Assembly: GCA_035528155.1 (NCBI GenBank)
Contig: DATKZA010000121.1
Coordinates: 26,554 to 90,553 of the forward strand
Direction of reading: 5' to 3'
Length of the DNA stretch: 64,000 nt
DNA from: Patescibacteria group bacterium
GTDB lineage: Bacteria > Acidobacteriota > Aminicenantia > UBA2199
The position numbers and the translations under genes are program-made. The notes under the pieces are model-generated. The model was not told the origin of the DNA. It saw only the letters and a list, made by a program, of their open reading frames with translations, and did not search any database. Positions 26,203 through 59,187 of this stretch are shown here, one piece after another. Every line of letters starts with the position of its first letter. Positions within the stretch are counted from its first letter, which is position 1.

Positions 26203-26547
26203 TTACCGGCTTTTGCTCTCCAATTTTTCTTGGCAGGGGACGCAGAAGCGGGCAAAGGGCAGGACTTCCAGGCGCTTGGAGGATATTTCCTGGCCGCAGT
26301 GCAGGCATTTGCCGTAATGGTTTCTTTCGATGCGCTCCAGGGCTTCCTCCACTTCCTTCAGGTTGGCCCGCATGTTGTTGGACATGACAAAGCCCATTTC
26401 CTTTTCGATCAATTCGTTGGCCTGGTCGATCTCGTCCATGGCGCCACCGCCGCCGTTGGACGTATCCCGCCACTCGATCACTTTCAGAATTTCATCACGC
26501 AGGGCCTGGAGTCTTTTTCTTATTTTAGGGTTCTGTTCATTTTTCAT
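26203..26547 (-). CDS. DksA/TraR-family C4 zinc-finger protein
   Basis: Coiled-coil region followed by CLHCGQEI...CVPC zinc finger (CxxC-N17-CxxC). Confidence 0.8.
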   Translation of the reverse strand: MKNEQNPKIRKRLQALRDEILKVIEWRDTSNGGGGAMDEIDQANELIEKEMGFVMSNNMRANLKEVEEALERIERNHYGKCLHCGQEISSKRLEVLPFARFCVPCQEKLESKSR

Positions 26548-26556
26548 TTTTATCTC

Positions 26557-27021: not shown

Positions 27022-27928
27022 GCTTTTTCAGCTTGTTGTACAATGATTTGCGCGAGATGTTAAGGATGCGCGCCACCCGGCTCTTGTTCTTGTATTTGCG
27101 CAACAGGTAGGCGGTATACTCGGCTTCCACCTCGGCCAGTGAACGCTCGCCCGACTGGATGAGGTCCAGAATGGGGCGCGGCCGGTCCAGAAGGGTCCAA
27201 ACGCCTTTTTCGTCCAGAATGCAGTCGCGCACGGCCAGGCCGTTCACGAAGTTTTCGAGTTCACGAATGTTGCCGGGCCAGGGGTATTGCAGCAGCTTTT
27301 GCCGGGCTTCCTCGCCGAGTTGAATTTTCACCCCTTTTTCAGTACAGAAATAGTTCAGCAGCGGCAGGATATCTTTTTTGCGTTCGCGCAGGGGCGGGAT
27401 GAAAATGCTGACCGTGGAGATCCGGTAATAGAGGTCGGCACGAAACTCGCCGCGGCGAACTTTTTCCTCGATGGTGCTGTCGGCCGAGAACAGGAAACGG
27501 GCCGCGATGTCGGCTTCCTGATTGCAGCCCAGGGGGAATATCTTTTTTCTTTCGATGACGCGCAAAAGCTTGGCTTGCATATGCAAACTCAAGAGATCGA
27601 TCTGGTTGAGGAAGATCGTGCCGTTCCCGGCCTGGCGCCATTTCCCCAAAAAGTCACGGTCGGCACCGGAAAAAGCCCCTTTCTGGTAACCGAACCATTC
27701 GCTTTCCAAGAGTGTTTCGGGCACATCGCCGCAGCCCAGATTGAGCAACGGTTGGAAGGGGCTGCTGCCGGCCAGGACGGCCGCCCAGAAATCCTTGCCG
27801 CTGCCGGTTTCGCCCCACAAGAGGACGGGCGTATCCAGCCCGGCGACTTTTTCGATCGCGGCCTTCACGGCCAGCGATTTTGGGTCCGGCAGGTTAGAAA
27901 TCAGGGGAAAAATCGTAACGTTTGGCAT
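27008..27928 (-). CDS. Sigma-54-dependent transcriptional activator (AAA+ sigma-54 interaction domain plus Fis-type HTH) with no N-terminal sensory/receiver domain (PspF-like)
   Basis: Walker A GETGSGKD, GAFTGA-type loop ESEWFGYQKGAFSGA, Walker B IFLNQID, C-terminal HTH VARILNISRKSLYNKLKKH; overlaps the rsfS 3' end. Confidence 0.75.
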   Translation of the reverse strand: MPNVTIFPLISNLPDPKSLAVKAAIEKVAGLDTPVLLWGETGSGKDFWAAVLAGSSPFQPLLNLGCGDVPETLLESEWFGYQKGAFSGADRDFLGKWRQAGNGTIFLNQIDLLSLHMQAKLLRVIERKKIFPLGCNQEADIAARFLFSADSTIEEKVRRGEFRADLYYRISTVSIFIPPLRERKKDILPLLNYFCTEKGVKIQLGEEARQKLLQYPWPGNIRELENFVNGLAVRDCILDEKGVWTLLDRPRPILDLIQSGERSLAEVEAEYTAYLLRKYKNKSRVARILNISRKSLYNKLKKHEEH

Positions 27929-28292
27929 CCATCCACAGCTTTTCCAGTGAAAACTTTTTCCGCCAGTCTGCCGAGAAAATGTTGATGATGAAATCGACGT
28001 AGTCGACCAGAATCCATTCGGACAGCCTTTCACCTTCGCTGCCCAGCGGTTGAAGCTGGAGATCTTTCTTGAGGTTCTCCTTGACGGCGTCGGCCAATGC
28101 CTTGTTCTGGCGAGCGGAGTTGCCGCTGCAAATAACCAGGTAATCGGTCATTTCGCTGATCCCCTTCAACTTTAGGACCGTGATCTTTTCCGCTTTCTTG
28201 TCCAGAAGGATCTGCACGGTTTTCTTGATCTCGCCCGGAATGCGGCGTTTGTGCAGATCTTCCAGGATCAGGCTGAATTCATCCTTCTTCAT
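27894..28292 (-). CDS. rsfS: Ribosome silencing factor RsfS (Iojap)
   Basis: DYLVICSGNSARQNKALADAV is the RsfS signature. Confidence 0.85.
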   Translation of the reverse strand: MKKDEFSLILEDLHKRRIPGEIKKTVQILLDKKAEKITVLKLKGISEMTDYLVICSGNSARQNKALADAVKENLKKDLQLQPLGSEGERLSEWILVDYVDFIINIFSADWRKKFSLEKLWMDAKRYDFSPDF

Positions 28293-28926
28293 ATAGTTTT
28301 ATTTCCTCCATGATCTTTTGCACGTTTTTTTCCACATAGGGAGAAATATCCTGGCCATGGGACATTTTTTTTCTGATGGCTGTGGCCGAGAGTTCCAGGT
28401 AGTCCGACACATAGGCGTGCAGGAATGCGGCTGGGGGTGGGGCCGAGTTTTCGCTTTCACGGCCCAAGGGGATATTTTCCTCGCGCAGCAGTTTCTCCAC
28501 TTTCTGTCGATGGCCGCCCCGGCGCAAAACGATGATGAAAAACACTTCCTGCAGGACCCGGCGGTATTCTTTCCAGGTGCGGATCTTTAAAAATCCCTCG
28601 CTGCCGGTGATAAAAAAGAAGTGTTCGTCCGGCTGCGCGGCTTTCAGTTCGCGGATGGTATCGATGGTCCAGGAATCTCCCTGGCGGTGCAGTTCCATGT
28701 CGCAGGGCAACAAACCGGGGTGGGGAAGCAGAGCGGCTTTGAGCATGGCCAGGCGCAGTTCCGCCGCCGGCAAGGCCTGCCGCTTTTTGTGCGGCGGTTG
28801 GGCGGAAAGAATATAAAGTATCCTGTCCAGGTTGAAGGCGGCTTTGATCTTCAGGCCCAGTTCGATATGCCCGCGGTGAACCGGATTGAAGGTTCCGCCC
28901 AGCAATCCTGTTTTAATCTGGCTCAT
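28279..28926 (-). CDS. nadD: Nicotinate-nucleotide adenylyltransferase
   Basis: GLLGGTFNPVHRGHIEL nucleotidyltransferase (H/T)xGH motif. Confidence 0.85.
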   Translation of the reverse strand: MSQIKTGLLGGTFNPVHRGHIELGLKIKAAFNLDRILYILSAQPPHKKRQALPAAELRLAMLKAALLPHPGLLPCDMELHRQGDSWTIDTIRELKAAQPDEHFFFITGSEGFLKIRTWKEYRRVLQEVFFIIVLRRGGHRQKVEKLLREENIPLGRESENSAPPPAAFLHAYVSDYLELSATAIRKKMSHGQDISPYVEKNVQKIMEEIKLYEEG

Positions 28927-29911
28927 GAAATGCGAAAATGGTTTTTTTCAATTTTTCCAGGTTGATCCCTCTAAGCGCCGATATTTCCACGTAGGGGATT
29001 TTACGCTTTCTGCAATAATTTCGCAAGACGTCGATCCGGGTCCTGTTTTCAGCAGTCAGATCAATCTTGTTGGCGGCCACAACCAGTTTTTTTTGCAGCA
29101 GCCGCGCATGGTGCATTTTCAGTTCGTTTTCCAGGACTTCATAACTTTTCATGGGGGGCAGGGAGCTGAAAGGCGACACATCGATGACGAAAAGCAGGAC
29201 CCTGGTCCGCTCGATGTGCCGTAAAAATTCCAGGCCCATGCCTTCGCCCTGGTGGGCGCCTTCCAGAATGCCTGGAATGTCGGCCACGATTAAACTCTTG
29301 TTCTTGAAATCCACCACGCCCAGGTTGGGGATGAGGGTGGTGAAGGGATAGTCGGCGATCTTGGGCCGGGCGGCGCTGATTTTTGAAATCAAGGTCGATT
29401 TGCCGGCATTGGGCAGTCCGACCAATCCGGCAAAAGCGATGAGTTTCAGTTCCAGGATTACCTTGATGACTTCGCCTTTTTCGCCCTTTTCGATCCGGCG
29501 CGGGGCCTGGTTGACCGAGGATTTGAAATGGATGTTGCCGCGGCCGCCTTTGCCGCCTTTGGCCAGGAGGAATTCCTGGCCGAGGCGCTCGAAGTCGAAT
29601 ATCAGTTTTTCGTCGGGAAAGGTCTTGACTACGGTCCCGGCCGGGACCTGGAGAATGATGTCAGCCCCTTTTTTGCCGGATTGCTTTTTGCTCCGGCCCT
29701 GGCCGCCGTTTTCAGCCTGGAACTGGCGTTTGTACTTAAAATCTGTCAGGGACTGGCAAACCTGGCTGCTGACCAGGATGATGTTGCCACCCTTGCCGCC
29801 GTCGCCGCCGTCCGGGCCGCCGTGCGGGATGAACTTTTCGCGGCGGAAGCTTAAACAGCCGTCGCCGCCGTTGCCGGCGCCGAATGAAATGATTGCTCTG
29901 TCAATAAACAT
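28913..29911 (-). CDS. obg: GTPase Obg/CgtA
   Basis: Gly-rich Obg fold N-terminus (GGDGGKGGN) followed by GTPase G1-G4 motifs (GLPNAGKST, DIPG, NKID). Confidence 0.9.
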   Translation of the reverse strand: MFIDRAIISFGAGNGGDGCLSFRREKFIPHGGPDGGDGGKGGNIILVSSQVCQSLTDFKYKRQFQAENGGQGRSKKQSGKKGADIILQVPAGTVVKTFPDEKLIFDFERLGQEFLLAKGGKGGRGNIHFKSSVNQAPRRIEKGEKGEVIKVILELKLIAFAGLVGLPNAGKSTLISKISAARPKIADYPFTTLIPNLGVVDFKNKSLIVADIPGILEGAHQGEGMGLEFLRHIERTRVLLFVIDVSPFSSLPPMKSYEVLENELKMHHARLLQKKLVVAANKIDLTAENRTRIDVLRNYCRKRKIPYVEISALRGINLEKLKKTIFAFHEPD

Positions 29912-29967
29912 GGGGTAGGGGATAAAAGGCTTGAAAAATTGGCGGGGTTTGAAAAACGCCGGCCAAA

Positions 29968-30219
29968 TTAATTGGGATCGACCTCGACGAATTTGTGCCC
30001 GGACCTGTCGACAAAGCGCACCTTGCCGGTAGCCAGGGCAAAAAGGGTGTCGTCCTTGCCGATGCCGACATTTTTACCGGGTCTGATGCGGGTGCCGCGC
30101 TGGCGGACTATGATGGAACCGGCATGGATCTGCTCGCCGCCGAATTTCTTGACGCCAAGACGCTTGGATGTGCTTTCCCGTCCATTTTTCGCGCTGCCGC
30201 CCGATTTTTTATGTGCCAT
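29968..30219 (-). CDS. rpmA: 50S ribosomal protein L27
   Basis: [16 protein letters not shown]...GKVRF is an unmistakable L27. Confidence 0.95.
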
Positions 30220-30566
30220 TATTCCGTCTCCTTGGTTTTGGCGCTGGCTTTGATCTCGATTTTTTCGATCTGGATCTTGTGGAGTTTCTGCCGGTGTCCC
30301 TGCGATTTGCGGTAGCCTTTTTTGGATTTCATCTTGTAGATGTGGATCTTTTCAGCCTTGATCTCATCGAGAACTTTCGCCTTGACTTTGGCGTTCTTGA
30401 CGTAGGGATCGCCGATCAGTACATCTTTATCGCCCTGAACCAATAAAACCGTGCTCAGGTTGGCCGTATTTTTTTTGACGAACTCTTCGGGAAGCAGTTC
30501 CACTTCCAAAATGTCGCCTTCGGCGATCTTATACTGCTTTCCGCCGGTTTCAAGTATGGCAAACAT
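30219..30566 (-). CDS. rplU: 50S ribosomal protein L21
   Basis: [18 protein letters not shown]... L21 N-terminus; start overlaps the rpmA stop. Confidence 0.95.
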
Positions 30567-37068: not shown

Positions 37069-38733
37069 TTATTTTTCGCCCTGCAGGCAAATGCGAATAT
37101 CTTCATCGGCCGTACCGATGGGTCTGATGGCAAATTTTTCCACGAGAACTTTCAGGACGTTGGGCGTGATGAATGCCGGCAATGTCGGCCCTAGCCGGAT
37201 GTTGCGCAAGCCCAGTGCCAGCAGGGTGAGCAGCACCACGACCGCCTTCTGCTCATACCAGGAAAGGATGAGCGACAGCGGCAGATCATTGACTCCGACC
37301 CCAAAAGCTTCGGCAAGGGCTTGGGCGATGCGGATGGCAGAGTAGGAGTCGTTGCACTGGCCGATGTCCAGTAGCCGCGGCAGGCCCTCGATGGTCCCGA
37401 ATTCGAGCTTGTTGAAGCGAAACTTGCCGCAGGCCAGGGTAAGGATGAGACAGTCGGCCGGAACTTTTTCGGCGAACTCGGTGTAATAGTTCCGTCCCGA
37501 CTTGGCTCCGTCACAACCACCTACTAGGAAAAAATGCCTGATCTTTCCTGACTTGACCGCGGCAACCACCTGGGCGGCGGCGCCGAGTACCGCCTGGTGG
37601 CCGAACCCGACGGTGATCGTCTTTCCCGGTTCGTCGGCAGGGAAACCTCCCAGCTCAATGGCCTTGGCAATCAGGAGTGAGAAATCCCTGCGGTCGGAGA
37701 TGTGGGCCACTCCAGGCCAGGCCACCAGCCCGGTAGTGAATATCCTGTCCATATATGATGCTTTCGACTTCTGGATGCAGTTTGTGGTCATGAGTATGGC
37801 GCCGGGAAAGCGCTCGAACTCTTTCTGTTGATCCTGCCAGGCGCCGCCGTAGTTGCCGGCCAGGTGGCTGAATTTCTTCAGGTTTGGGTAGCCGTGAGCC
37901 GGGAGCATCTCGCCGTGGGTGTATATCTGCACGCCTCGTCCTTCGGTCTGGCGCAGCAATTCATCCAGGTCAAGGAGATCATGTCCCGAGATCAGGATGG
38001 CCGGTCCTTTTTTCACTCCCAGCGCTACCTGAGTAGGGACGGGGTGACCGAAATGTCCGGTGTTGCCCTTGTCCAGCATTTCCATGCAACGCAGGTTGAC
38101 CAGGCCCAGTTCCATGTTCAGCTCCACCAGGTCGGCTGTGCCCAAACCTTCATCAACCAGTGCCGCCAGGGCCTTGTAGAAAAAAGCGGAAACAACTTCA
38201 TCGGTTTCTCCAAGGATGCCGGCATGGTCGGCGTAGGCGGCCATGCCCTTCAGTCCGTAAACCAGCAGTTCGCGCAGGCTGCGAATATCGGGGTCCAATT
38301 GCGGGTTGGCCATGATGCCGGCCATGGCGCCCTGTTTGAGCAGCCCTGCCATGGTCCCGGCCGGAATGAATTCCACCGCTTCCGCAAGCTGCCCGGAAAA
38401 AGTCCGTCCGTTCTTTTTTAAATAGAGTTCATGAAATTTATCTTTCAGGGTTTTCTTGATCTTGTAAGAACTGTCGATCCAGTCCTTGAGGCGCTGGGGA
38501 TCGAAGTCGACGTTGGTCACGGTGGTGAACAGGGCTTCGATCACGAAAAGATCCGTGCGCCCGTCGGCGTAGCCTAGTTCGCGCAAGCGCTGGCCCAGAA
38601 CGCCAATGCCCTTCAGTTCATTCATCAGCAGGTCCTGCAGCAGAGCTACTTCAGGGCTCTTGCCGCAAACACCGACGCGGGTGCAAGCTTGGCTATTGCT
38701 GGTTTGTTCGCATTGGTAGCAAAACATGTTCAT
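37069..38733 (-). CDS. hcp: Hybrid cluster protein / hydroxylamine reductase
   Basis: N-terminal MNMFCYQCEQT...C...C Cys cluster and full-length Hcp similarity. Confidence 0.9.
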   Translation of the reverse strand: MNMFCYQCEQTSNSQACTRVGVCGKSPEVALLQDLLMNELKGIGVLGQRLRELGYADGRTDLFVIEALFTTVTNVDFDPQRLKDWIDSSYKIKKTLKDKFHELYLKKNGRTFSGQLAEAVEFIPAGTMAGLLKQGAMAGIMANPQLDPDIRSLRELLVYGLKGMAAYADHAGILGETDEVVSAFFYKALAALVDEGLGTADLVELNMELGLVNLRCMEMLDKGNTGHFGHPVPTQVALGVKKGPAILISGHDLLDLDELLRQTEGRGVQIYTHGEMLPAHGYPNLKKFSHLAGNYGGAWQDQQKEFERFPGAILMTTNCIQKSKASYMDRIFTTGLVAWPGVAHISDRRDFSLLIAKAIELGGFPADEPGKTITVGFGHQAVLGAAAQVVAAVKSGKIRHFFLVGGCDGAKSGRNYYTEFAEKVPADCLILTLACGKFRFNKLEFGTIEGLPRLLDIGQCNDSYSAIRIAQALAEAFGVGVNDLPLSLILSWYEQKAVVVLLTLLALGLRNIRLGPTLPAFITPNVLKVLVEKFAIRPIGTADEDIRICLQGEK

Positions 38734-48157: not shown

Positions 48158-48210
48158 TTATTACCTGCGGCCGATGAACATGATACATCGATACGAACGA
48201 TATTGCCAAC

Positions 48211-48242
48211 AAAAAAAACCCGCCCCGGGGGACCGGGGCGGG
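48211..48242 (-). terminator. Rho-independent terminator downstream of receptor gene 1 (GC stem CCCGCCCCGG/CCGGGGCGGG followed by a U8 tract on the minus strand)
   Basis: aaaaaaaacccgccccgggggaccggggcggg; 10-bp GC stem, 4-nt loop, 8 A on plus equals 8 U on minus. Confidence 0.65.
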
Positions 48243-48292
48243 CGGGAAAACGTTCACGGACCGCGCGCGGCGCGCGGCCCGCTTGAAAATGT

Positions 48293-51200
48293 CTAGAAAG
48301 CGAACTTGATGCCCAGCGTGGCTTCCAGGGGGGGCAGGAAGCGGTAGCCCATGCCGAAGCGCGGGTCGAGCTGCTCCACTCTGGACTTGACGTCGACGCC
48401 ATCCAGGAGGTCCTGGTCGCTGATAAAGACGTCATCTCTGTTGTAAAAGCTGAGCAGGCGCTGCGCCGTCTTGGCGTCGGTCACGTTGCGGACGTTGAGT
48501 GAGAATTCCAGGTTGTTCTTGCCCAGTTTCAGCGCGTACTCGGCGTAGAAGTCGGCGGTGACGGTGAAGGGGGAGCGCAGGCCGGTGTCGAAGCGGTTGT
48601 AGGGGTAGTAGCCCTGCTGGCCGTTCACCTGGATCTCGGTCGACAGCGGCTGGCCGGAGTAGGCATTCACCACGCCGCCCAGGGTCACGCCAAAGGGGAA
48701 AACGTAGGAGGCATAGGCCTTGAGGTAGTGGGGGCGGTCGGTGTTCATCTTGCCGGCGATCGGCTTCATGTACTGGTCGTAGGAAGTCATCCACAGGTCG
48801 AAGTAGCGGTTGACGTTGGGATCGTTGCGCTCAGCCTCGTCGGAGCTGTTCAGGCCGGCGTAGTTGCCGGTCAGCTGGCTCCAGGTGTAGGAGAGGCCGC
48901 CGAGCCAGTTGTCGCTGAAGCGCTTTTCCAGGGAGAGGTTGACGGCATAGTAGTCGCGGGTGGCCTTCTGCGGAGCAGGGATCCCGGCGGGCAGAATGCC
49001 GTTCGAAATGGCGATATCGTACTGGTTCTTCACGTAGTCGCTGCCGGGATTGGCGATGAAATAGGTCTCGCCCTCGGGCATCAGGATGCCGATGTCATCG
49101 ATCGCCCACAGCAGCTTCTTGTTGACCAGGCGCACAGAAAGGGACAGGTCGTCGTTGATCTTCTTTTCCAGGCCGAAGGAAATTTCGCGCTGGGACATGG
49201 GCTTCATGTCGGGGTCGGTCTCGTTGATCGAGGGGATGCGCCAGTTCTTGTTGCCCAGGTACAGGCCGGGGAAATTGCCGTTGACGCCGATCTGGTCCCA
49301 GTTGGGGGTATCCAGCTCATAATATTCGCTGATCCAGACAAAGCCGCCGTAGGAGCCTTCGGGCAGGGCGAGCTTCATGCAGTCCTGGAAAATGCCGAAG
49401 GCGCCGAACACCTTCAGGCTGGAGTCGCCGAAGACGTCGTAGATGAAGCCCAGGCGGGGGGCCAGCTTGTCGCCCCAGCCGAAGTCCAGGGGAACGATGT
49501 CCTTGAATTCAGGCAGGGAGCTGAACGCCGGCACCTGTTCCTTTTCGGCGCGCAGCCCGAAGTTGAGGGTCAGCTTGTTGGCGATGGTCCAGGAATCCTG
49601 GAGGTAGAATGCCCAGCGGTTGGACCTGGCCTTGTCGATCATCTGGCCGAAGGGGGTGCGGTTCTCATAGTAGCCGTACTTGCCGAGCCAGCCGGCATCC
49701 ACCGGGCTGCCCGGGATCTGGTTGGGGAAGGCACGGCCGACATAGAGCCTGATAACCGGGACCGGGGAAGTGCCGTTGTAGTCGTCCATGATCTGGTTGT
49801 AGGCAAAGCCGGCCTTCCAGGAGTGCTCGCCGGCCAGGTTCATGAAGTAGTTGACGTCGATGTTGGCGCTGGTGCGCGTGTAGTTGGCCTTCGACAACTT
49901 GTAGAAAAGGCCCCAGGTGTAATTGGACCAGCCGTAATTGCGGACCTTGTCCTCCGGCCAGCCGTAGGCGGCTTCACCGCCCGCATTGTACGTGAAATGC
50001 TGATAGTAGATCCCCGGGGGGTCCATGACCGAGGCGTCGTTCTGGTTGTAGTAGCCGAAGCGGCCGGACACCTGCAGATTGTTGCCGATGGTATAATCCA
50101 GGTTGGCGGAGGTGGACCAGGTCGGGGAGTTCTCGCCCATCTGGTCATAGGTGAAGGTGGAGCTTCCGATCGTCTGCCAGTCGGGGAAGTTGGTATTGGG
50201 GTCATCGCCCGGCAGGCCGCCGCGCCATTGGTTGTTGTTGGCGATGAAGGAGGCCGACAGGCGCATATTCTTGATCGGCTCGGCCGACAGCTTGATCGAG
50301 CCGTTCATCCATGTGTCCTTGCGCTCGTACGAGGTCAGCGGGGCGCCGGCCACTTCGTCGAAGTTGACGTCGCGGTTGGTCTGGCGATACACAGGCAGGA
50401 AGGAGCCGAAGAACCACAGCTTGTCCTTGAGGATGTAGCCGCCCAGGCTGAGGCCGCCCTCCAGGCGTGAGAAATCCTGATTGCTGAAGTTTTCGTAATT
50501 GAAATACTGGGCTACGGTCGGATCGTCCGGCTTCAGGCGCAGCACGTCGCGCATCTTGCCGCGCAGGGCGCTGCCCTGGAAGTAGCCCATGACCTCGCCG
50601 TGGAACTGGTTGCCGCCCGAGCGCGTGACCACGTTGACCACGCCACCCATGGAGCCGCCGAACTCGGCCTGGTAGCCCGAGGCCTTGACCTGCACTTCGT
50701 CGATGAAGTCGAAGGCGGCCTGCATGCGCTGCTGGGCGCCGCGCACTTCGCCGGTCTCCATGCCGTCGACGTAGAAGACGTTCTCGGCGCCGCTGGCGCC
50801 GTCGACCGACAGGCCGCCGGTCATGGGCTCGTTGTAGACGCCGGGGACGGCCGTGACCAGGGTGCTGAAGTCGCGCCCCTTGGGCAGGTTGTTGAAGAGC
50901 TCCTTGGTCAGGGTCATGCCCTTGGCCGTGCTCTTGACGTCGATCAGCGGCATCTCCCCGGTGATGGTGATGACCTCGTTCAGGTTGCCGAGCTTCATCT
51001 CGATCTTCAGGCTGGCGGTCTGCTCGGCGACCAGCGGGATGTTTTCCCGCACCACGGTCTGGAACCCCTCCAGGGTGAACACCAGCTTGTAGGTGCCGGG
51101 CGTTAAATTCAGAAGCCTGAAGGTGCCGTTCTCGTCGGTGACCGCCGTCGCGTTGCCGACCAGCTTGGGGCTGGTGGCTTCGATGCTGACGCCGGGCACC

Positions 51201-51322
51201 AATGAACCGTCTTCAAGTTGTACCGTGCCGAAGATCTTGGCAGTGGTCTGCTGGGCGCTCAGCATTCCCGCGAGCAGGAGCACGCTGAATGCCAGCAGGG
51301 TGAACCTTTTGACAATACTCAT
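48293..51322 (-). CDS. TonB-dependent-like outer-membrane receptor with an N-terminal carboxypeptidase-regulatory-like domain (1009 aa; real start MSIVKRF at 51322)
   Basis: Signal peptide; TAKIFGTVQLEDGSLVPGVSIEATSPKLVGNATAVTDENGTFRL CarboxypepD_reg fold; plug-like region; 22-strand-scale barrel; C-terminal LGIKFAF; AAGGAGGA RBS. Confidence 0.8.
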   Translation of the reverse strand: MSIVKRFTLLAFSVLLLAGMLSAQQTTAKIFGTVQLEDGSLVPGVSIEATSPKLVGNATAVTDENGTFRLLNLTPGTYKLVFTLEGFQTVVRENIPLVAEQTASLKIEMKLGNLNEVITITGEMPLIDVKSTAKGMTLTKELFNNLPKGRDFSTLVTAVPGVYNEPMTGGLSVDGASGAENVFYVDGMETGEVRGAQQRMQAAFDFIDEVQVKASGYQAEFGGSMGGVVNVVTRSGGNQFHGEVMGYFQGSALRGKMRDVLRLKPDDPTVAQYFNYENFSNQDFSRLEGGLSLGGYILKDKLWFFGSFLPVYRQTNRDVNFDEVAGAPLTSYERKDTWMNGSIKLSAEPIKNMRLSASFIANNNQWRGGLPGDDPNTNFPDWQTIGSSTFTYDQMGENSPTWSTSANLDYTIGNNLQVSGRFGYYNQNDASVMDPPGIYYQHFTYNAGGEAAYGWPEDKVRNYGWSNYTWGLFYKLSKANYTRTSANIDVNYFMNLAGEHSWKAGFAYNQIMDDYNGTSPVPVIRLYVGRAFPNQIPGSPVDAGWLGKYGYYENRTPFGQMIDKARSNRWAFYLQDSWTIANKLTLNFGLRAEKEQVPAFSSLPEFKDIVPLDFGWGDKLAPRLGFIYDVFGDSSLKVFGAFGIFQDCMKLALPEGSYGGFVWISEYYELDTPNWDQIGVNGNFPGLYLGNKNWRIPSINETDPDMKPMSQREISFGLEKKINDDLSLSVRLVNKKLLWAIDDIGILMPEGETYFIANPGSDYVKNQYDIAISNGILPAGIPAPQKATRDYYAVNLSLEKRFSDNWLGGLSYTWSQLTGNYAGLNSSDEAERNDPNVNRYFDLWMTSYDQYMKPIAGKMNTDRPHYLKAYASYVFPFGVTLGGVVNAYSGQPLSTEIQVNGQQGYYPYNRFDTGLRSPFTVTADFYAEYALKLGKNNLEFSLNVRNVTDAKTAQRLLSFYNRDDVFISDQDLLDGVDVKSRVEQLDPRFGMGYRFLPPLEATLGIKFAF

Positions 51323-51366
51323 TTTGTTTGTCCTCCTTTTTTTATTTGACAAAACATCCAAGGTGT

Positions 51367-51382
51367 TGCAAGTTCCATGCCA
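51367..51382 (-). promoter_or_regulatory. Sigma-54 (-24/-12) promoter TGGCAT-GGAAC-TTGCA upstream of receptor gene 1
   Basis: Coding strand CTTGGCATGGAACTTGCAACACC; GG-N10-GC spacing exact; about 45 nt upstream of the ATG. Confidence 0.55.
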
Positions 51383-51689
51383 AGGGAAGCGGATGGTTTG
51401 AAAACAGCCTGGGGAATTTTTAGTGAACCTGAAAAACTTGAATGGAAGAGGGTTTGCCAGCCAGGACAGGTCGCGGAGAACATTCACCGCAAAGAGTCTT
51501 TTCTTTTTTATTGCCCCTAAAAAATACAAATTATTAATTTTTATTTCAAAAAACAATTAAAAACTCAATTTATTGAACTGCGGATAAGGACTGGCCGGAA
51601 AAATATTGCGCTGATTGAAAAAAAAACTCCTCAAAAAGCATTGGCCGGGCCTGGTTCAAGAAAAAGCGGGTTTGCCTTTTGCTGCTTTC

Positions 51690-51718
51690 TTGTCAAGCGG
51701 AACGGGTAGTGTTATAAT
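51690..51718 (+). promoter_or_regulatory. Sigma-70-like promoter TTGTCA-17 nt-TATAAT upstream of GWxTD gene 1
   Basis: TTGTCA 51690-51695, TATAAT 51713-51718; the ATG at 51725 lies 6 nt downstream (possible leaderless start). Confidence 0.4.
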
Positions 51719-51724
51719 AAATTA

Positions 51725-53815
51725 ATGATGATCAATTCAGTAAGTGCAGTGAGGCCGATGATGAAAAAATTGCTTGTGGTTTGCAGCGTTCTGATTTTTT
51801 GCTTTTCACTTCATGGCGAATCCGAGAAAGAACTCATAAAAAAACTTCCACCGCCACACCGCGTCTGGCTCACGGAAGAGGTGGTATACATTATTTCCTC
51901 TGTTGAAAAGGAAGTTTTCTTGCAGCTTGAATCCGACCGGGAACGCGACACCTTCATCAGCGCCTTCTGGAAACAGCGCAATCCCACTCCCAACCTGCCG
52001 GAAAACGAATTTAAAAAAGAGCATTACCGCCGCCTGGCCTATGTCAACAACTGGTTCGGCAAGGATTCCCCGGCCCCGGGCTGGCGCACCGACCAGGGCC
52101 GTATCTACATCACCCTGGGTGAAGCGCATTCGATCGAACGTTACGAAAGCGACAACGACCTGGTTCCTACCGTGGTCTGGTTCTACCAGGGCATGGCCGC
52201 CAAGGGACTTCCCGATTCCTTCAACGTGGTTTTTTTCAAGAAGGACGGCATGGGAGAATATGAGCTCTATTCTCCCGTCAAGTACGGTCCCCAAGCCTTG
52301 ATGCGAAACTTCGAGGGCGATGCCACTTCTTATGAGGCGGCCTATTATGCCCTGCTGGATATACAGCCCCAGCTGGCTACCGTCTCTCTCTCACTGATCA
52401 CCGGTGAACCGCTGGGCGTGAATCCCTCCATAGCCTCGGAGCTGCTGATCCGGCAGAAGATCCCTGAAACCCCGCAGCGGAATATCAAGAATATTTACGC
52501 CAGCAATTTCCTCAAGTTCAAAGGGCAGGTCGAGATCGACTACGCCGACAATTTCATGGAGAGCAGTTCCCAACTCAATGTTGTCCGCCACCCATCCGGG
52601 CACTATTTCATCCATTACCTCATCGAACCCAAGCGCCTCTCCTTTGAACAATACAAGGAGAAGTATTACACCACCCTGGAAATTTCCGGCAATATCTCCG
52701 ACCCTTCCGGAAAGATGCTCACCCAGATCTCACGCCGCATTCCCCTTGAATTGAGTGAAAATCAGATGCGCATGGTCAAGGACAAGCTTTTCAGTTTTCA
52801 GGACATGATCCCGGTCATCCCTGGAAGTTATCGCCTCACCATTTTCCTTAAAAACCTTACCACCAAGGAATTCACATCCCTGGAAAAGGATTTTGTCATC
52901 CCCGACCGGGAAAAATTGGCGATCTCGACGCTGCTGCTGGCCAACCGCAAGGCCGCCGCCGCGAGCAGTGTTGTCATCAAACCTTTTATTTTCGACGGCA
53001 GCCACCTTCTACCTTCGCCGCGCAACGATTTTCTCGCGGCCGACAATCTGGAACTCTTTTTTCAACTCCACGGCCTGAGCGGGGACTTGATACGGGCCGG
53101 CTCCCTGGAAATATCCCTTTTCCGCCGCGGCGAAAAAGTTTTCACCAAGGAACGGCTGCTCCGCGATCTTGGCTCTCTGCCCGACGTGCTGGAAACCCTG
53201 CCACTGAAGGGTCAATCCCCTGCTTACTACAATCTCAAGGTGTCCCTGCTTGACCAGAAAAAAAGCGAGATCGCGACCAAAAACGCCGATTTCTACATAA
53301 CGCCGCAACCCTCCCTGCCCCGACCCTGGGTCGTTTCCGTGCCCACAGCTGTCGGCGATTTCAGCGTCTTTCTTAACGAACTTGGACGCCAGTACGTTCA
53401 GAGCGGTGATCTTGATAAGGCCCGGCCCCTTCTGGAATCGGCTTTCCGGCAAAACCCCGACAGCGTCCGCTTCGGCGGCGATTATTGCCAACTGCTGCTG
53501 CAGAAAAAGGAATTCGCCAAGGTCAAGGCCCTGGCCCTGCCCCAGGTCAAGGAAAAATCCCGTTTTGAATTCGCCCTGCCCCTGGGCCATGCCTGCCAGG
53601 GCTTGAACGAATTCAACGACGCCATCGCTTTCTACGCGGACTTCATCACCCATTTCGGGGCCAACATCAATGTCTTCAACCAGATCGGCGAGTGTTATTT
53701 TCAGCTGGGCAATGCGGCGGAAGCCCTGAAGGCCTGGGAAAAATCATTGGAACTCAATCCCAAGCAGCCGCTCATCAGGGAAAAAGTCGCTGGTTTGCAG
53801 AAAACCGCCAAATGA
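51725..53815 (+). CDS. GWxTD-domain protein with C-terminal TPR-like repeats (alternative start MMKKLL at 51758)
   Basis: Signal peptide; FWKQRNPTP...EFKKEHYRRLAYVNNWF...GWRTDQGRIYITLGEA matches the GWxTD domain signature. Confidence 0.75.
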   Translation: MMINSVSAVRPMMKKLLVVCSVLIFCFSLHGESEKELIKKLPPPHRVWLTEEVVYIISSVEKEVFLQLESDRERDTFISAFWKQRNPTPNLPENEFKKEHYRRLAYVNNWFGKDSPAPGWRTDQGRIYITLGEAHSIERYESDNDLVPTVVWFYQGMAAKGLPDSFNVVFFKKDGMGEYELYSPVKYGPQALMRNFEGDATSYEAAYYALLDIQPQLATVSLSLITGEPLGVNPSIASELLIRQKIPETPQRNIKNIYASNFLKFKGQVEIDYADNFMESSSQLNVVRHPSGHYFIHYLIEPKRLSFEQYKEKYYTTLEISGNISDPSGKMLTQISRRIPLELSENQMRMVKDKLFSFQDMIPVIPGSYRLTIFLKNLTTKEFTSLEKDFVIPDREKLAISTLLLANRKAAAASSVVIKPFIFDGSHLLPSPRNDFLAADNLELFFQLHGLSGDLIRAGSLEISLFRRGEKVFTKERLLRDLGSLPDVLETLPLKGQSPAYYNLKVSLLDQKKSEIATKNADFYITPQPSLPRPWVVSVPTAVGDFSVFLNELGRQYVQSGDLDKARPLLESAFRQNPDSVRFGGDYCQLLLQKKEFAKVKALALPQVKEKSRFEFALPLGHACQGLNEFNDAIAFYADFITHFGANINVFNQIGECYFQLGNAAEALKAWEKSLELNPKQPLIREKVAGLQKTAK

Positions 53816-53867
53816 GACCGTCTAATATAATGCCGGAGACCGGCAATTCAATATGGAGGTTAGCAAG

Positions 53868-54827
53868 ATGAATAGAGATTACAAAAAGCCTTGGTGCGTC
53901 CTGGCCTGTGTCCTGGTCGTTTCTTCACTCACTTTTGCCCAGGCCGGCCGCGGCAAGGGGCGCCTGAGCGGCAACGTGGTCGACGAGAAGGGCGAACCCA
54001 TCGTTACTGCGGAAGTGAAGATCGAGTTCGAGAAAGGCGGCCTGGTGGACAAGACCACGGTCAACAAGAAGGGCGAATGGAGCTTCATCAGTCTGGGAAC
54101 GGGCCAGGCCATCGTCACCGCTTCGGCGGAAGAATTCCTGGACAGCAGCCTGAACATTCACGTGCAGCAGCTGGAACGCAACAAGTTCGTCACCCTGGTC
54201 CTGAAGGAGGACAAGGAAAAAAAGATCCGCCTCAAAGATGCGGGCGCGCTGGAGGAATTGGAAAAAGGCAACCAACTTTTCCAGGAACGCAAGTTCGACG
54301 AAGCCTTGCAGATCTATCAAACCTTCGCTAGCGAAAACCCCAAGGTTTACCAGATCTATTTCAATATCGGTGATGTCTACCGCGAGAAAGGTGAATTCGA
54401 CAAAGCCAACGAGCAGTACGCCATGGCCCAGGTCAAGGCCAAGGAAAAGGCTGATGTCGTCCTGCAGGCCAGGGCCCTGGCCTCGTTCGGCGAGATCTGC
54501 CTGAGGCAGGAAAAATTCAAGGAAGCCCAGGAATTCTTCACCCAGTCGATCGCTCTCAACCCCAAGGACGAGATCCTGGCCTACAATGTGGCCGAGATAT
54601 TTTTCGGACGCAACCAGACCGACAAAGCCATCGAGTATTACCTGCTGGCCATTCAGATAAAACCCGAGTGGAGCGAGCCCTACCTGAAATTGGGCTATGC
54701 CTATCTGAACAAAGGCGACATGGCCAAGGCGGTCGAATATTTGAACGGCTTCCTCACCCACGACCCCGAATCGCCCCAGGCGCCGGTGGTCCAAAGCCTG
54801 ATCGAATCCCTGACCAAGGCCAAATAA
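53868..54827 (+). CDS. Secreted TPR-repeat protein with an N-terminal carboxypeptidase-regulatory-like domain (alternative start 53853)
   Basis: Signal peptide; GRLSGNVVDEKGEPIVTAEVKIEFEKGG CarboxypepD_reg-like; then at least 5 TPR units; GGAGG RBS before 53868. Confidence 0.7.
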   Translation: MNRDYKKPWCVLACVLVVSSLTFAQAGRGKGRLSGNVVDEKGEPIVTAEVKIEFEKGGLVDKTTVNKKGEWSFISLGTGQAIVTASAEEFLDSSLNIHVQQLERNKFVTLVLKEDKEKKIRLKDAGALEELEKGNQLFQERKFDEALQIYQTFASENPKVYQIYFNIGDVYREKGEFDKANEQYAMAQVKAKEKADVVLQARALASFGEICLRQEKFKEAQEFFTQSIALNPKDEILAYNVAEIFFGRNQTDKAIEYYLLAIQIKPEWSEPYLKLGYAYLNKGDMAKAVEYLNGFLTHDPESPQAPVVQSLIESLTKAK

Positions 54828-54829
54828 CC

Positions 54830-55500
54830 AGTAGGGGTTTGATGAATCAAACCCCTACCTATTCACCCATCCCCTCTCTTTCAAAATGAGAGGGGAGTGC
54901 TGTTTTCCCCTTCTCTTCCCAAGAGAAGGGGGTAGGGGATGAGTTGGGAGCATTCAGAAAATTTGTTTGTTTTAGATATCTCTCAGAGATTGAGTTAGGA
55001 AGGAAAAACTCACCCCCATCCCCTCTCTTTTAAAATGAGAGGGGTTTTTTTTTCTCTCCCGGGTTCGGCATGGAGGGAGAACGGCTATTAATACTGATAT
55101 TATATATATGGAAACCCCTTTCGGAGCGAATTGAGTATTCTGGTGGTTTATCCAGGGACGTATACGGAATACTGAACTCACCCCCTGACCCCCTCTCTTC
55201 CCAAAGAGAGGGGGAAGTGCAATTATGGCTGATGAAGCCCTTTCTCTTTACCAATCACTAATCACCAATCACGAATAACGAATCACGAATTGCGGGGGGA
55301 TGAGTTAAGAGCACGATTATCCTGACATTAGAACAAGCCAGCACAAGTTGGATCATTCGTAACGCGTAACACGTAACGCGTGACGAGAAAGAGAAGATGT
55401 CGAGGTTTGAGGTTCGAAGTAGAAGAAAAGATCACAAGGAAATTCCAGATGTAGGGGTTTGATTCATCAAACCCTTGCAGTCAGGTAATATTCTTCTGAG
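54830..55500. repeat. Non-coding island packed with short palindromic repeat units and hairpins (REP/MITE-like family shared with 672-775 and 18946-19185)
   Basis: Units cccctctctttcaaaatgagagggg, ccccttctcttcccaagagaagggggtaggggatgagtt, cccctctcttttaaaatgagagggg, ccccctctcttcccaaagagaggggg; CAATCAC tandem repeats at 55245-55295; palindrome GTAGGGGTTTGATGAATCAAACCCCTAC at 54833 with an imperfect copy at 55446. Confidence 0.55.
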
Positions 55501-55740
55501 TCTGGATTGATATCTGCCTGGGGCAGGGAACGCAGATCGATCTGCGTTCCTTCAGAAGAAAACCTATCATGCTTTTGTTTAGAATATTAGAACTTGGAAT
55601 TTATTTGGAATTTTCTTAAGTACGGGAGGGTTTCACCCCCTGAAGGGGGCACGAACCCTCCCCTACATTCCTCTCCCCCCATACCCCTCTACCTCTCGAA
55701 CTATTCCCTCGTCCCTTACTGCCGGGGGGCGATCTACGGG

Positions 55741-55786
55741 CAAAAAAAAACCCCGCCCCCCGAAGGGGGCAGGGTCTTTTAAGTCC
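55741..55786 (-). terminator. Strong rho-independent terminator downstream of receptor gene 2 (bidirectional hairpin; U9 on minus, UCUUUU on plus)
   Basis: caaaaaaaaaccccgccccccgaagggggcagggtctttt; 25 nt past the gene 2 stop at 55812. Confidence 0.65.
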
Positions 55787-55811
55787 GCTAATTTAAACGA
55801 TTAGCCGACGT

Positions 55812-58800
55812 TTAGAAACTGAACTTGAAGCCCAGGCGGACAGCCAGCGGAGTTCCGCGGACGCCGTCGCCGTAGAACCACGTTTCCTTCTTGAACAGGG
55901 GATCCAGCTCGATGTCGGCGATCTCCCAGGTGGAGCTGTTGGCGATCTCTTCGTAGCTGGGGGCGGTGCCGCCGTTGTTGTAGATCTGGTAGATCCTCTG
56001 CGCGGTGCGGCTGTTGGTGACGTTGTCGACGTTGACGCTGATGTTGAGGTTGTTCTTGCCCAGTTTGAGGTTGTATTCGGCGTAGAGATTGGCGAACCAG
56101 AAGAAGGGGGTGCGGCCCAGGTCGCCGCGTCCGAAGGGCAGGTAGCCCTGGACGTCCATGGAGTACTCGGTCGAGACCGGGATGCCGCTCATGGCGTTGA
56201 TGACCGTACCGAAGGTCAGGCCCATGGGCAGGGAGTAGGAGCCGTACAGTTTGACGTAGTGGGTGCGGTCGCCGGGCATGACGCCGTCGATCTTGTTCAT
56301 CTCCCTGTCAAACGCCAGGTACCAGAGGTCGAAGTAGCGTTCGACGTTGGGGTTGCTGCGGCCCAATTCGTCGCCCGAGGCCAGGCCGGAGTAGTTGCCG
56401 GTCAGGCGGCTCCAGGTGTAGGAGATGCCGCCCATCCAGTTGTTGGAGAAACGCTTGTCGAGGGAGAGGTTGAGGGCGTAATACAGGCGCTTGGCTTTGG
56501 GGATGTCCGGGGCGTTCTGGGGGATCGATCCGGTCGCTTTTTGTTCAGCCCATCTCGCCTTGATGTAGTCGCTGCCGGGGTTGGTGGTGTAGTACATTTC
56601 GCCGTCGGGGGTCAAGATGCCGATGTCCTCGATGGCCCAGAGCAGGTTCTTGTTGACCAGGCGGGCGGTAAAGGCCAGGTCTTCCCTGAGTTTCTTTTCG
56701 ACACCGAGGGAGATTTCCATCTGGCTCATGGATTTCATGTCGGGGTCGGTGGTATCGAAGGAGGGCATGCGGAAGTCGAAGACGGCCAGAGGAGTGCCGT
56801 AGTCCCAGCCTTCCATGCCGATCTCGTCCCATTTGTAGGTGTTGAGCGGGTAGATGGCGCTCGACCATAAGAATCCACCGTAGGAGCCGGCGGCCATTTC
56901 GAGCTTCATGACGTCATAAAAGAGGCCGGCCGAACCGAAGACTTTGAGACTGGAGTCGCCATTGACGTCCCAGATGAAGCCTAAGCGCGGAGCCAGCTTG
57001 TCGCCAAAGCCCCACTCGATGGCCTTGACGTCTTTGTAGTCGGGGTTCGAGCTGTAGGAGGGGATGTATTCGGCTTCGGTGCGCACGCCAAAGTTGATGG
57101 TGACGCGGTTGGCGATGGTCCAGGAATCCTGGAGGTAGAGGGCCCAGCGGTTGGAATACGCTTTGTAATAAGCCCCGTATGGACCGGAATCTACGTTGCC
57201 GCGCGCGGAGTAGTAGCCGTAGGTACCGCGGCCATAGTTTGTACCGTATGCTTCATAATCCCTGTTCCAGCCAAACAAAATATAGGGAAAGGCCGCGGAG
57301 TTGTCATAATTCTGCCCCTGGCGCACGAACTGCACGCCGGCCTTCCAGGAGTGTTCGCCGCCCAGGTTGAGGAAGTAGGTCATGTCGGCGTTGACGCTCA
57401 TTTTTTCGTTCAGGGCCTTTTTGAGCGCATAGGGTACGGCCGATGCGCTTCTAAAACCAGCACTACGCTGGTACTCATCGGGCACGCCCGGCAATCCTCT
57501 GTTGGTGGTGCTGAAATAACCGCCGGGGGCTTCCGTCAAGAATCGCCAGTACGGTTCGGTCGGATCAACAAGAATACCACCTTGGTCGCGCTTGAAGTAG
57601 CCGGCGCGGGCGCTGACCATGAAGTTGTTGCCCGCGGTGAAGTCGGCCGAAAAGCTGCCGGAGAAGTTAGGATAGGAGTAACCATACTCGTCGTAGGAGA
57701 CCTTCGGGGCAGGGTTGCCGCCGAAGGCGTTGTTCAGATCGCCCTTGTAATTGTAGAAACTGTTGACCAAGGAAGCGGTCACGCGCAGGTTCTTGGCGGG
57801 CTGGGCGGTGAGCTTGCCTGAGAAGTTCCAATAGTTTTCGGTCCGTTTCCAGTCTTTGACCGTGCCGCCGCCGTAGTCGACTGTGCGGGTGTTGCTGTAG
57901 TAGACGGGCAGGAAGGAGCCGAAGAACCACAGCTTGTCCTTGATGAGGTAGCCGCCCAGGTTGAAGCCGCCTTCGAGGCGGCTGTCATTGTTGTCGCCGA
58001 TATAATCGACGTAATCGTAATACTTGGCTTTGCTGACGTCCACCTTGTCGTAGTCGAGGCGTTGACTGTAGGGCGCGCGCAGGGCGGCGCCGCTGTAGAA
58101 ACCCAGGATCTCGCCATGAAATTCGTTGCCGCCCGAGCGGGTGACGACGTTGATGACGCCGCCCAGCGAGCCGCCGAATTCGGCACTGTAACCGGAAGCC
58201 TTGACCTGGACCTCGTCGACGAAGTCGAAGGAGGCCGACTGGCCGTTGGCGCCGTTAACGATGTTGGTGACGTCGGTGCCGTCGATGTAGTACATGTTCT
58301 CCAGGCCCGAGGCGCCGTCGATCGAGGTGCCGCCGAGCATGGGCTCGTTGGAAACGCCGGGGATGGCGGTGATCAGCGAGTCGAAGTTGCGGCCCTTGGG
58401 CAGGGTCTGGAAGACCTCTTTGGTCAACGTCATGCCCTTGACCGTGCTCTTGACGTCGATCTGGGCGACCTGACCGGTGATGGTCACCATTTCCTCGATG
58501 TTGCCGAGTTTCATGGAAACCTTGATGCTGAGGGTCTGTTCCAAGCCTACCTGGACGCCGTCCCGAATGACGGTCTGGAATCCCTGCAGGGTAAACACCA
58601 GTTTGTACATACCCGGAGCCAGGTTAAAAAGCCTGAAGGTGCCGTTTTCGTCGCTGACCGCGGTGGTCTTGCCGACTAATTTCGGGCTGGTGGCCTCGAC
58701 GTTAACGCCGGGGACCAGCGAGCCGTCTTCAAGCTGCACTACGCCAAAGATCTTGGCCGTAGATGTCTGGGCTGTCAGCAGTCCTGCGCACAGGAGCAGG

Positions 58801-58838
58801 CTGATCGCCAGCACAGCGAACCTTTTGGCAAAATTCAT
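55812..58838 (-). CDS. TonB-dependent-like outer-membrane receptor with an N-terminal carboxypeptidase-regulatory-like domain; paralog of 48293-51322
   Basis: MNFAKRFAVLAISLLLCAGLLTAQTSTAKIFGVVQLEDGSLVPGVNVEATSPKLVGKTTAVSDENGTFRL is collinear with receptor 1 along the full length; ends GFKFSF. Confidence 0.8.
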   Translation of the reverse strand: MNFAKRFAVLAISLLLCAGLLTAQTSTAKIFGVVQLEDGSLVPGVNVEATSPKLVGKTTAVSDENGTFRLFNLAPGMYKLVFTLQGFQTVIRDGVQVGLEQTLSIKVSMKLGNIEEMVTITGQVAQIDVKSTVKGMTLTKEVFQTLPKGRNFDSLITAIPGVSNEPMLGGTSIDGASGLENMYYIDGTDVTNIVNGANGQSASFDFVDEVQVKASGYSAEFGGSLGGVINVVTRSGGNEFHGEILGFYSGAALRAPYSQRLDYDKVDVSKAKYYDYVDYIGDNNDSRLEGGFNLGGYLIKDKLWFFGSFLPVYYSNTRTVDYGGGTVKDWKRTENYWNFSGKLTAQPAKNLRVTASLVNSFYNYKGDLNNAFGGNPAPKVSYDEYGYSYPNFSGSFSADFTAGNNFMVSARAGYFKRDQGGILVDPTEPYWRFLTEAPGGYFSTTNRGLPGVPDEYQRSAGFRSASAVPYALKKALNEKMSVNADMTYFLNLGGEHSWKAGVQFVRQGQNYDNSAAFPYILFGWNRDYEAYGTNYGRGTYGYYSARGNVDSGPYGAYYKAYSNRWALYLQDSWTIANRVTINFGVRTEAEYIPSYSSNPDYKDVKAIEWGFGDKLAPRLGFIWDVNGDSSLKVFGSAGLFYDVMKLEMAAGSYGGFLWSSAIYPLNTYKWDEIGMEGWDYGTPLAVFDFRMPSFDTTDPDMKSMSQMEISLGVEKKLREDLAFTARLVNKNLLWAIEDIGILTPDGEMYYTTNPGSDYIKARWAEQKATGSIPQNAPDIPKAKRLYYALNLSLDKRFSNNWMGGISYTWSRLTGNYSGLASGDELGRSNPNVERYFDLWYLAFDREMNKIDGVMPGDRTHYVKLYGSYSLPMGLTFGTVINAMSGIPVSTEYSMDVQGYLPFGRGDLGRTPFFWFANLYAEYNLKLGKNNLNISVNVDNVTNSRTAQRIYQIYNNGGTAPSYEEIANSSTWEIADIELDPLFKKETWFYGDGVRGTPLAVRLGFKFSF

Positions 58839-58885
58839 TTGTTTGTCCTCCTTTTTAGATTTTTAGACAAATCACTAATAATATA

Positions 58886-58900
58886 GCAAGAACCATGCCA
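58886..58900 (-). promoter_or_regulatory. Sigma-54 (-24/-12) promoter TGGCAT-GGTTC-TTGCT upstream of receptor gene 2
   Basis: Coding strand CTTGGCATGGTTCTTGCTATAT; same spacing to the ATG as at gene 1; identical 22-nt AAAAAGGAGGACAAACAAAATG RBS region. Confidence 0.55.
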
Positions 58901-59187
58901 AGTTGACAAAGGGGGCGGCTATTGTCAATCGGAACGGAAACAATTTATAGAAGTGCGCTTATCAATGGTTTCGCCCGGGGGAGGAATGAAACCGTATCGC
59001 TGATAGCGAGAGTAGTTTCTCTGAAACCCGGAAAAATTCAAATAATTGAATAATTATTCAAAAAACAGAATTATGGTTGTTGGAAAACTGGGGGATTCCA
59101 CTTTTGGGTCATTGAAAAGCGGCTGGGTGAGTAGCAAAAAAGTGCCGACCGCCGCTTGGGGACGATCGGCACGATAAAAAACTGATT

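Follow-up and report, generated by a model that had tools for sequence, protein, structure and literature searches.

Which promoters drive the genes for large outer-membrane receptors in Aminicenantes? The question is raised by two paralogous genes in a 64,000-nt stretch of contig DATKZA010000121.1 (positions 26,554 to 90,553; assembly GCA_035528155.1; GTDB lineage Acidobacteriota, Aminicenantia, UBA2199), referred to here as the window. Both genes encode Oar-type TonB-dependent receptor-like proteins of about 1,000 amino acids, and each is preceded by a sequence of the sigma-54 (-24/-12) type. We consider it very likely that they are separate, monocistronic transcription units that depend on sigma-54 and an upstream enhancer. 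The mechanism is a known one; the target family and the enhancer motif are new, and the module itself is real and well supported. The genes and their predicted promoters are as follows, with scores from a position weight matrix (PWM).

48293–51322, minus strand: receptor gene 1, 1009 aa; Oar-type TonB-dependent receptor-like protein with CarboxypepD_reg and OMP_b-brl_4/TonB_dep_Rec matches
55812–58838, minus strand: receptor gene 2, 1008 aa; paralogue of gene 1
51367–51384, minus strand: predicted sigma-54 promoter of gene 1, TTGGCATGGAACTTGCA / CTTGGCATGGAACTTGCA; -24 GG at 51380–51381, -12 GC at 51368–51369; 24.7 bits
58885–58902, minus strand: predicted sigma-54 promoter of gene 2, TTGGCATGGTTCTTGCT / CTTGGCATGGTTCTTGCT; 26.7 bits

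Both core sites match TGGCAY-N5-TTGC exactly and have GG-N10-GC spacing, as an initial annotation of this DNA had proposed for the two receptor genes. Its motif coordinates fell on real sites, covering 15–16 of the 18 nt, and its estimate of about 45–50 nt to the ATG agrees with the 46 nt (gene 1) and 48 nt (gene 2) measured from the C of the -12 GC. On both strands of the window the exact core occurs three times, against 0.42 expected, and a scan of all 64 kb with the PWM returned the two receptor sites only. The third exact core (37206–37220) was set aside as a chance match, lying inside the hcp coding sequence with flanks off consensus and a PWM score below 12 bits.

By the best named homologues, the organism belongs to Candidatus Aminicenantes, phylum Acidobacteriota. 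The comparative evidence came from 76 related receptor loci fetched from public genomes, almost all of them Aminicenantes, of which 71 were usable. Of the 71, 37 have an exact core in the 500 nt preceding the receptor ATG, and eight more have a core with one mismatch, mostly an ATGC variant of the -12 element (one-mismatch background, 0.017 per 500 nt). The density of exact cores is 150.7 per 100 kb in these upstream windows; over the other 1.36 Mb of the loci it is 0.73 per 100 kb, about 200-fold lower, and eight of the ten matches outside the upstream windows precede further receptor paralogues. The core stands 54–63 nt before the ATG in 24 loci, both window genes included, and among those loci both the N4 spacer and the 40 nt preceding the core vary freely. 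Agreement with the sigma-54 consensus extends to positions outside the search pattern: across 32 sites, T stands before TGG in 24, G after TGGCAY in 25 and W after TTGC in all 32. The gene 1 and gene 2 proteins are 51% identical, so neutral DNA between the paralogues is expected to be randomised; measured pairwise identity is 0.26–0.28 in the flanks (random level) and 0.33–0.38 in the spacers. Conservation upstream of the receptors is thus a clear phylogenetic footprint of a predicted sigma-54 promoter. The initial annotation's call of -24/-12 promoters before both receptors is strongly supported by this comparison. Its further suggestion, that the regulatory module was duplicated together with the gene, captures only part of the pattern, which goes beyond a local duplication: the module is conserved before the receptor family in many Aminicenantes genomes, and identity outside the conserved blocks is random.

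Further upstream, both genes carry tandem dyads that form a candidate enhancer.

51563–51578, minus strand: gene 1 enhancer dyad GTTCAATAAATTGAGT, RTTCAA-N4-TTGAAT type; 181–196 bp upstream of the T of TGGCA
51544–51559, minus strand: second gene 1 enhancer unit AATTGTTTTTTGAAAT, with half-site TTGAA at 51545–51549; centre about 19 bp from that of the first dyad
59036–59071, minus strand: gene 2 enhancer, ATTCTGTTTTTTGAAT (59056–59071), AATT and ATTCAATTATTTGAAT (59036–59051); two dyads of 16 bp each, spaced 20 bp from centre to centre

In the window, RTTCAA-N4-TTGAAT with one mismatch or none is confined to the two receptor upstream regions, and gene 2 holds the sole exact dyad. Dyads are about 100-fold enriched upstream of the promoters, and their positions are fixed relative to the T of TGGCA. 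In gene1-like loci, RTTCAAWWWWWTTG is found at -194 to -197 (11 loci) and TTTTTTGAA / TTGAA at -166 to -169 (conserved in W_g1, L005, L009, L010, L012 and L018). In gene2-like loci the half-sites TTGAA, TTCAA and TTGAA stand at -161, -150 and -141 (±1; n = 9). Locus L011 has its half-sites at -150, -139 and -130, an 11-bp shift of one helical turn.

As an independent test, public metagenome contigs were scanned with an enhancer-only pattern, TTTGAATNNNNATTCAATNNTTTGAAT, and the core was sought within 260 nt downstream. The scan recovered 39 loci, of which 24 contain an exact sigma-54 core and three the one-mismatch ATGC-variant core (27/39 in total). Measured from the start of the enhancer pattern, the exact cores lie at 161–163 nt (11 loci), 97–100 nt (10), 117 nt (2) and 214 nt (1), and the three variant cores at 150 or 161 nt. 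The spacings 99, 162 and 214 differ by about six and five helical turns; 117 is off phase. Among the core-less remainder, seven contigs have 15–37% GC, three matches fall at contig ends and two contigs are unexplained. All 27 loci with enhancer and core precede Oar-type receptors, or a GntR-like gene and then a receptor. Judged from these sequences, enhancer and promoter are coupled in lineages that differ widely in base composition, because a search for the enhancer alone recovers cores at stereotyped spacing. What the comparison demonstrates directly is which sequence elements are present, that they are conserved and occur together, and that the geometry between them is fixed. The cleanest form of the enhancer, GTTCAA-N4-TTGAAT-N4-ATTCAA-N4-TTGAAT, is found in a lineage of 41–45% GC, the one in which the GntR-like gene precedes the receptor.

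In five metagenome loci (L086, L088, L098, L100 and L111; GC 0.35–0.44) the enhancer and sigma-54 promoter precede a gene for a GntR-like regulator of about 234–263 aa. Where the sequence is long enough (L086 and L098), an Oar-type receptor gene is found about 0.8 kb beyond it. This arrangement suggests an extra regulatory layer in the lower-GC lineage.

A third, weaker element lies between enhancer and promoter.

51430–51456, minus strand: gene 1 mid element CAAACC...TTTTTC (AAAnC-N~15-TTTC); -74 to -48 from the -24 T
58948–58974, minus strand: gene 2 mid element GCGAAACC...CTTC; -74 to -48 from the -24 T

Its columns (AAAnC...TTTC) are conserved in position in both promoter groups, and it may be where a DNA-bending protein or another regulator binds. 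Reading the mid elements by eye, we found no convincing match to the IHF consensus WATCAA-N4-TTR.

The monocistronic reading comes from the terminators around the two genes.

48208–48243, minus strand: intrinsic terminator directly 3' of gene 1; GC stem of 11 bp, then a T run
55743–55768, minus strand: intrinsic terminator 3' of gene 2
59142–59172, minus strand: terminator of the hypothetical gene upstream of gene 2; separates the gene 2 enhancer from that gene and insulates the gene 2 unit

Both receptor genes are monocistronic, because strong intrinsic terminators (also delimited as 48243–48218 for gene 1 and 55768–55751 for gene 2) bracket the units. Downstream of gene 2, an interval of about 1 kb (54830–55810) has no long open reading frame (ORF) and is dense in short GC-rich hairpin repeats (CCCCTCTCTTTYAAAATGAGAGGGG twice, CCCCCTCTCTTCCCAAAGAGAGGGGG once and GTAGGGGTTTGATKMATCAAACCC twice) that resemble REP or MITE elements.

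One gene of the enhancer-binding protein (EBP) family lies in the window.

27008–27928, minus strand: EBP-family gene, 306 aa; sensor-less, with loop GAFSGA and NQ in Walker B; candidate regulator

Several observations weigh against enhancer-dependent sigma-54 control of the receptors. No sigma-54 core was found within 500 nt in 26 of the 71 family members, about a third. AT-rich intergenic composition may explain part of the dyad enrichment, and the positions of the transcription start sites are predicted from sequence. The sigma-54 gene rpoN was not found by RpoN-box regular expression or tblastn in the window, in 10 kb of additional contig or in about 1.5 Mb of related loci, and EBP genes alone point to the presence of the factor. 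The window EBP departs from the canonical ATPase site, with Walker B FLNQID in place of FLDEIG and sensor I SAD in place of ATN (residues ~103–112 and 147–150). Lastly, gene 2 has a sigma-70-like sequence, TTGTCA-18-TGcTATATT (58909 to 58880), that matches at 10 of 12 positions, includes an extended -10 and overlaps the sigma-54 site.

This last site bears on the alternative that sigma-70-type promoters transcribe the receptors and that the shared TGGCA...TTGC is a residue of the duplication. Canonical sigma-70 promoters are clearly in use in this organism; one is TTGTCA-17-TATAAT (51690–51718), before the gene divergent from gene 1. However, the sigma-70-like -10 of gene 2 is lost even in the closest orthologue, L016, which reads TTCACT; near the start of gene 1 nothing comparable is present, and its best match (9/12) falls inside the enhancer; and the -24/-12 core is kept in 45 of the 71 loci amid random flanks. 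We therefore give transcription from sigma-70 promoters a very small probability and retain sigma-54 as the preferred reading.

The -35 of that sequence belongs to a further feature, which the initial annotation had correctly placed, as TTGACA-N14-TGTCAA, immediately next to the gene 2 promoter.

58903–58928, minus strand: lineage-specific palindrome TTGACAA-N12-TTGTCAA; abuts the gene 2 -24 element, and its right arm doubles as the sigma-70-like -35

The annotation took it for a possible regulator site, and a version of that idea would make it the EBP site of gene 2. The two 7-bp arms form a perfect inverted repeat and are the same in L016 as in the window, whereas three positions of the 12-nt loop differ; with up to two mismatches, the palindrome matches three times in the window against 0.19 expected. 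Exact copies were nevertheless confined, among 84 loci, to this contig and the closest orthologue L016; the gene2-like promoters L011, L013–15, L019, L021, L045 and L056 lack it; and a position abutting the -24 element fits a repressor or a sigma-70 -35 better than an enhancer. A role as the EBP site of gene 2 is thus improbable, and the palindrome was rejected as a general regulator site. The conserved enhancer candidate lies instead 135–200 bp upstream.

Could the EBP encoded in the window bind that enhancer? The protein has a sigma-54 interaction domain (PF00158, 1.2e-43), a C-terminal HTH_8 match (7e-8) and the loop GAFSGA, and its start at 27928 (306 aa) agrees with those of its orthologues. 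A motif scan and tblastn bore out the initial annotation in describing it as sensor-less and as the sole EBP of the window. However, nothing links the protein to the promoters, and its Walker B and sensor I are non-canonical. These departures are not peculiar to this genome. Among the 120 closest homologues (302–315 aa, 55–97% identity; annotations include Desulfobacteraceae, Binatia and Acidobacteria), at least 113 have N-[Q/N/G] in Walker B and Asp in sensor I, with the GAF(T/S)GA loop retained. Changes of this kind normally abolish ATP hydrolysis, so an activator role for the window EBP is doubtful; the homologues probably represent a distinct subfamily with impaired ATP hydrolysis. The gene sits in a minus-strand operon (26203–30566) with the order rplU-rpmA-obg-nadD-rsfS-EBP-rlmH-dksA-like and overlapping stop and start codons at the EBP, and this order is kept in orthologues down to 59% identity (L081–L084). 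A ribosomal/obg operon is an unusual home for a sigma-54 activator.

If the protein were nonetheless the cognate activator, its operon would tie receptor expression to growth or ribosome status. That no other EBP is present in the window fits this proposal, as does the occurrence of orthologues in enhancer-carrying genomes, some of them on the same contigs as L011 and L045. The recognition helix of its helix-turn-helix (HTH) domain, ISRKSLYNKLK, is nearly invariant down to 55% identity, in parallel with the conservation of the enhancer motif across lineages of 41–60% GC. EBP genes were absent from the flanks of the 76 receptor loci, with the exception of L024, and from the 39 enhancer loci; no EBP gene adjoins any enhancer-bearing locus, which implies a factor acting in trans. 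Against the proposal stand the substitutions in essentially all 120 homologues (N-Q/N/G for Walker B DE, Asp for the sensor I Asn) that predict impaired ATP hydrolysis, the lack of an enhancer dyad near the EBP's own operon, the presence of other EBPs in Aminicenantes and the circumstantial nature of the association between this EBP and the promoters. In L024, a canonical FHA-GAF-AAA+-HTH EBP with a GAFTGA loop (1866–4003) is encoded directly upstream of a receptor paralogue, so several EBPs exist in the clade; some 65 nt ahead of its ATG, that receptor has TGGCACGTTTGCCGCA, in which the GG-N10-GC spacing is correct and the -12 element weak. We regard the window EBP as an unlikely cognate activator. 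Less likely still is the broader proposal that the Oar-type receptors, with several paralogues per genome, form one sigma-54 regulon across Aminicenantes, defined by RTTCAA-N4-TTGAAT and regulated by the clade-wide sensor-less NQ EBP of the rplU-rpmA-obg-nadD-rsfS-rlmH-dksA operon. If that were true, the main nutrient-uptake or secretion gates of these cells would be coupled to ribosome and growth status through an atypical EBP.

Downstream of the core, both genes have a short predicted leader.

51323–51357, minus strand: predicted 5' leader of gene 1; transcription start placed at about 51355–51357, TGTTTTGTC at 51348–51356, Shine-Dalgarno GGAGG at 51332–51336, GACAAAC at 51326–51332
58839–58875, minus strand: predicted leader of gene 2; TGATTTGTC at 58866–58874, Shine-Dalgarno GGAGG at 58847–58851, GACAAAC at 58841–58847

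The sequence before the ATG is AAAAAGGAGGACAAACAAAATG in gene 1 and AAAAAGGAGGACAAAC-AAATG in gene 2. The initial annotation had described the last 22 nt before each ATG as identical; what the genes have in common is the 16-nt block AAAAAGGAGGACAAAC, followed by a 1-nt indel (AAAATG in gene 1, AAATG in gene 2). About 20 loci carry TGTTTTGTCWAA 11–13 nt past the -12 element, close to where a sigma-54 transcript would start, and the same loci have AAGGAGGACAAAC before the ATG. Within the leader, TTTGTC can pair with GACAAA, placing the Shine-Dalgarno sequence in the loop. The conserved leader (TGTTTTGTC ... GGAGGACAAAC) could on that account fold into a hairpin at the 5' end of the RNA, with a stabilising or tuning effect on the mRNA. 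RNAalifold finds an 8-bp consensus stem; one pair shows a compensatory change from U-A to G-C in L006 and L007 (L008, identical to L006, was excluded from the alignment); and loop lengths of 12 to 21 nt argue against a rigid protein operator. Fold energies are weak (-3.8 to -7.5 kcal/mol) with non-significant z-scores (-0.3 to -1.9), nearly all pairs are invariant and hence uninformative, leaving the one covarying pair, and no Rfam family matched the leaders or upstream regions at the gathering threshold or in permissive searches. We offer the hairpin only as a tentative possibility.

Leaders of other kinds occur in the receptor family. In L034, L038, L042, L046, L066, L096, L087, L120 and L122 the sigma-54 core lies 200–750 nt upstream of the ATG, which implies long 5' leaders. 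A subfamily with no core within 500 nt (L040, L047, L051, L059, L067, L071, L072 and L076) has a different conserved leader, GGTYCGGTCCGGGAYAAGGAGAAAYC, directly before the ATG; it is G+C-rich and possibly forms a hairpin. The GWxTD/TPR gene divergent from gene 1 (51725–53815, plus strand) has a near-consensus sigma-70 promoter, TTGTCA-17-TGnTATAAT (51690–51727), that ends about 6 nt before its ATG, which implies a leaderless mRNA; this promoter is conserved in L005, L009, L010, L012, L026 and L041.

The elements suggest the following scheme, in which the use of sigma-54, the transcription start and DNA looping are what we infer from sequence. From its upstream end, a unit would begin at the terminator of the preceding gene (for gene 2), followed by an enhancer of two or three 16-bp RTTCAA-N4-TTGAAT dyads 135–200 bp upstream of the -24 element, the position-conserved mid element at -74 to -48, possibly for a DNA-bending protein, and the -24/-12 promoter TTGGCAYG-N4-TTGCW. 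A leader of about 35–40 nt would then begin near TGTTTTGTC and end in AAGGAGGACAAAC(A)n-ATG, leading into the receptor ORF and an intrinsic terminator. Sigma-54 holoenzyme would wait on the -24/-12 element in a closed complex until an AAA+ EBP bound at the dyads looped over and drove promoter opening with ATP. Expression of the Oar-type receptors would thus be all-or-none and activator-dependent.

The proposed unit can be set beside the classical enhancer-dependent sigma-54 promoters, such as glnAp2 with NtrC, nifH with NifA and pspA with PspF and IHF. Like these, it has a GG-N10-GC core that matches YTGGCACG-N4-TTGCW, tandem dyad-symmetric activator sites that lie about 100–200 bp upstream with a spacing of about two helical turns, and a conserved element in the interval from enhancer to promoter that usually houses IHF sites. 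Unlike these, its target is an outer-membrane receptor family, its AT-rich enhancer RTTCAA-N4-TTGAAT could be matched to no described EBP site, and its mid element is off the E. coli IHF consensus. The window EBP resembles PspF in combining an AAA+ sigma-54 interaction domain and a C-terminal HTH without an N-terminal receiver or sensor. It differs in Walker B (NQ, not DE), sensor I (SAD, not ATN), the GAFSGA form of its loop and the location of its gene inside a ribosomal/obg operon rather than beside a psp-like target.

Pfam detects PF13620, PF25183 and PF00593 in both receptor proteins, which have an N-terminal CarboxypepD_reg domain followed by OMP_b-brl_4/TonB_dep_Rec barrel matches, the layout described for Oar. 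The Myxococcus xanthus protein Oar represents the Oar subclass of TonB-dependent transporters (PMC6434023). The window receptors share with it a length of about 1,000 aa and the CarboxypepD_reg extension (PF13620) ahead of a TonB-dependent-type barrel, and differ in the Plug domain, which scores 20.8 bits in gene 1, below the Pfam cut-off of 23.9, and has no match in gene 2; PF07715 is present in some homologues. Sequence searches returned no relative with a solved structure.

Sigma-54 regulons are poorly charted outside Proteobacteria, and Aminicenantes are uncultured. We know of no report of sigma-54 control of Oar, and our literature searches found no report of such control of receptors with the Oar layout, no paper linking sigma-54 to TonB-dependent receptors in Aminicenantes or Acidobacteria, no report of sigma-54 regulation in either group and no paper on an EBP in an rsfS/rlmH operon. 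The 2011 proposal that sigma-54 controls the bacterial exterior does not mention TonB, Acidobacteriota or Aminicenantes (PMC3162934). A cross-phylum regulon survey from 2025 found predicted sigma-54 promoters enriched for TonB (COG0810) in Flavobacteriia; this concerns TonB itself only, not TonB-dependent receptors, and Acidobacteriota and Aminicenantes are unmentioned (PMC12316311). As cell-envelope or transport targets, the receptors described here fit the theme of both studies, and they extend the idea of sigma-54 governing the cell exterior to TonB-dependent-type receptors. The analysis also draws attention to an EBP subfamily that is widespread and has a non-canonical ATPase site, and the resulting PWM and enhancer pattern can be used for genome-wide scans. 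For the most expanded outer-membrane protein family of Aminicenantes, it provides a testable regulatory unit, consisting of promoter, enhancer motif, geometry and leader.

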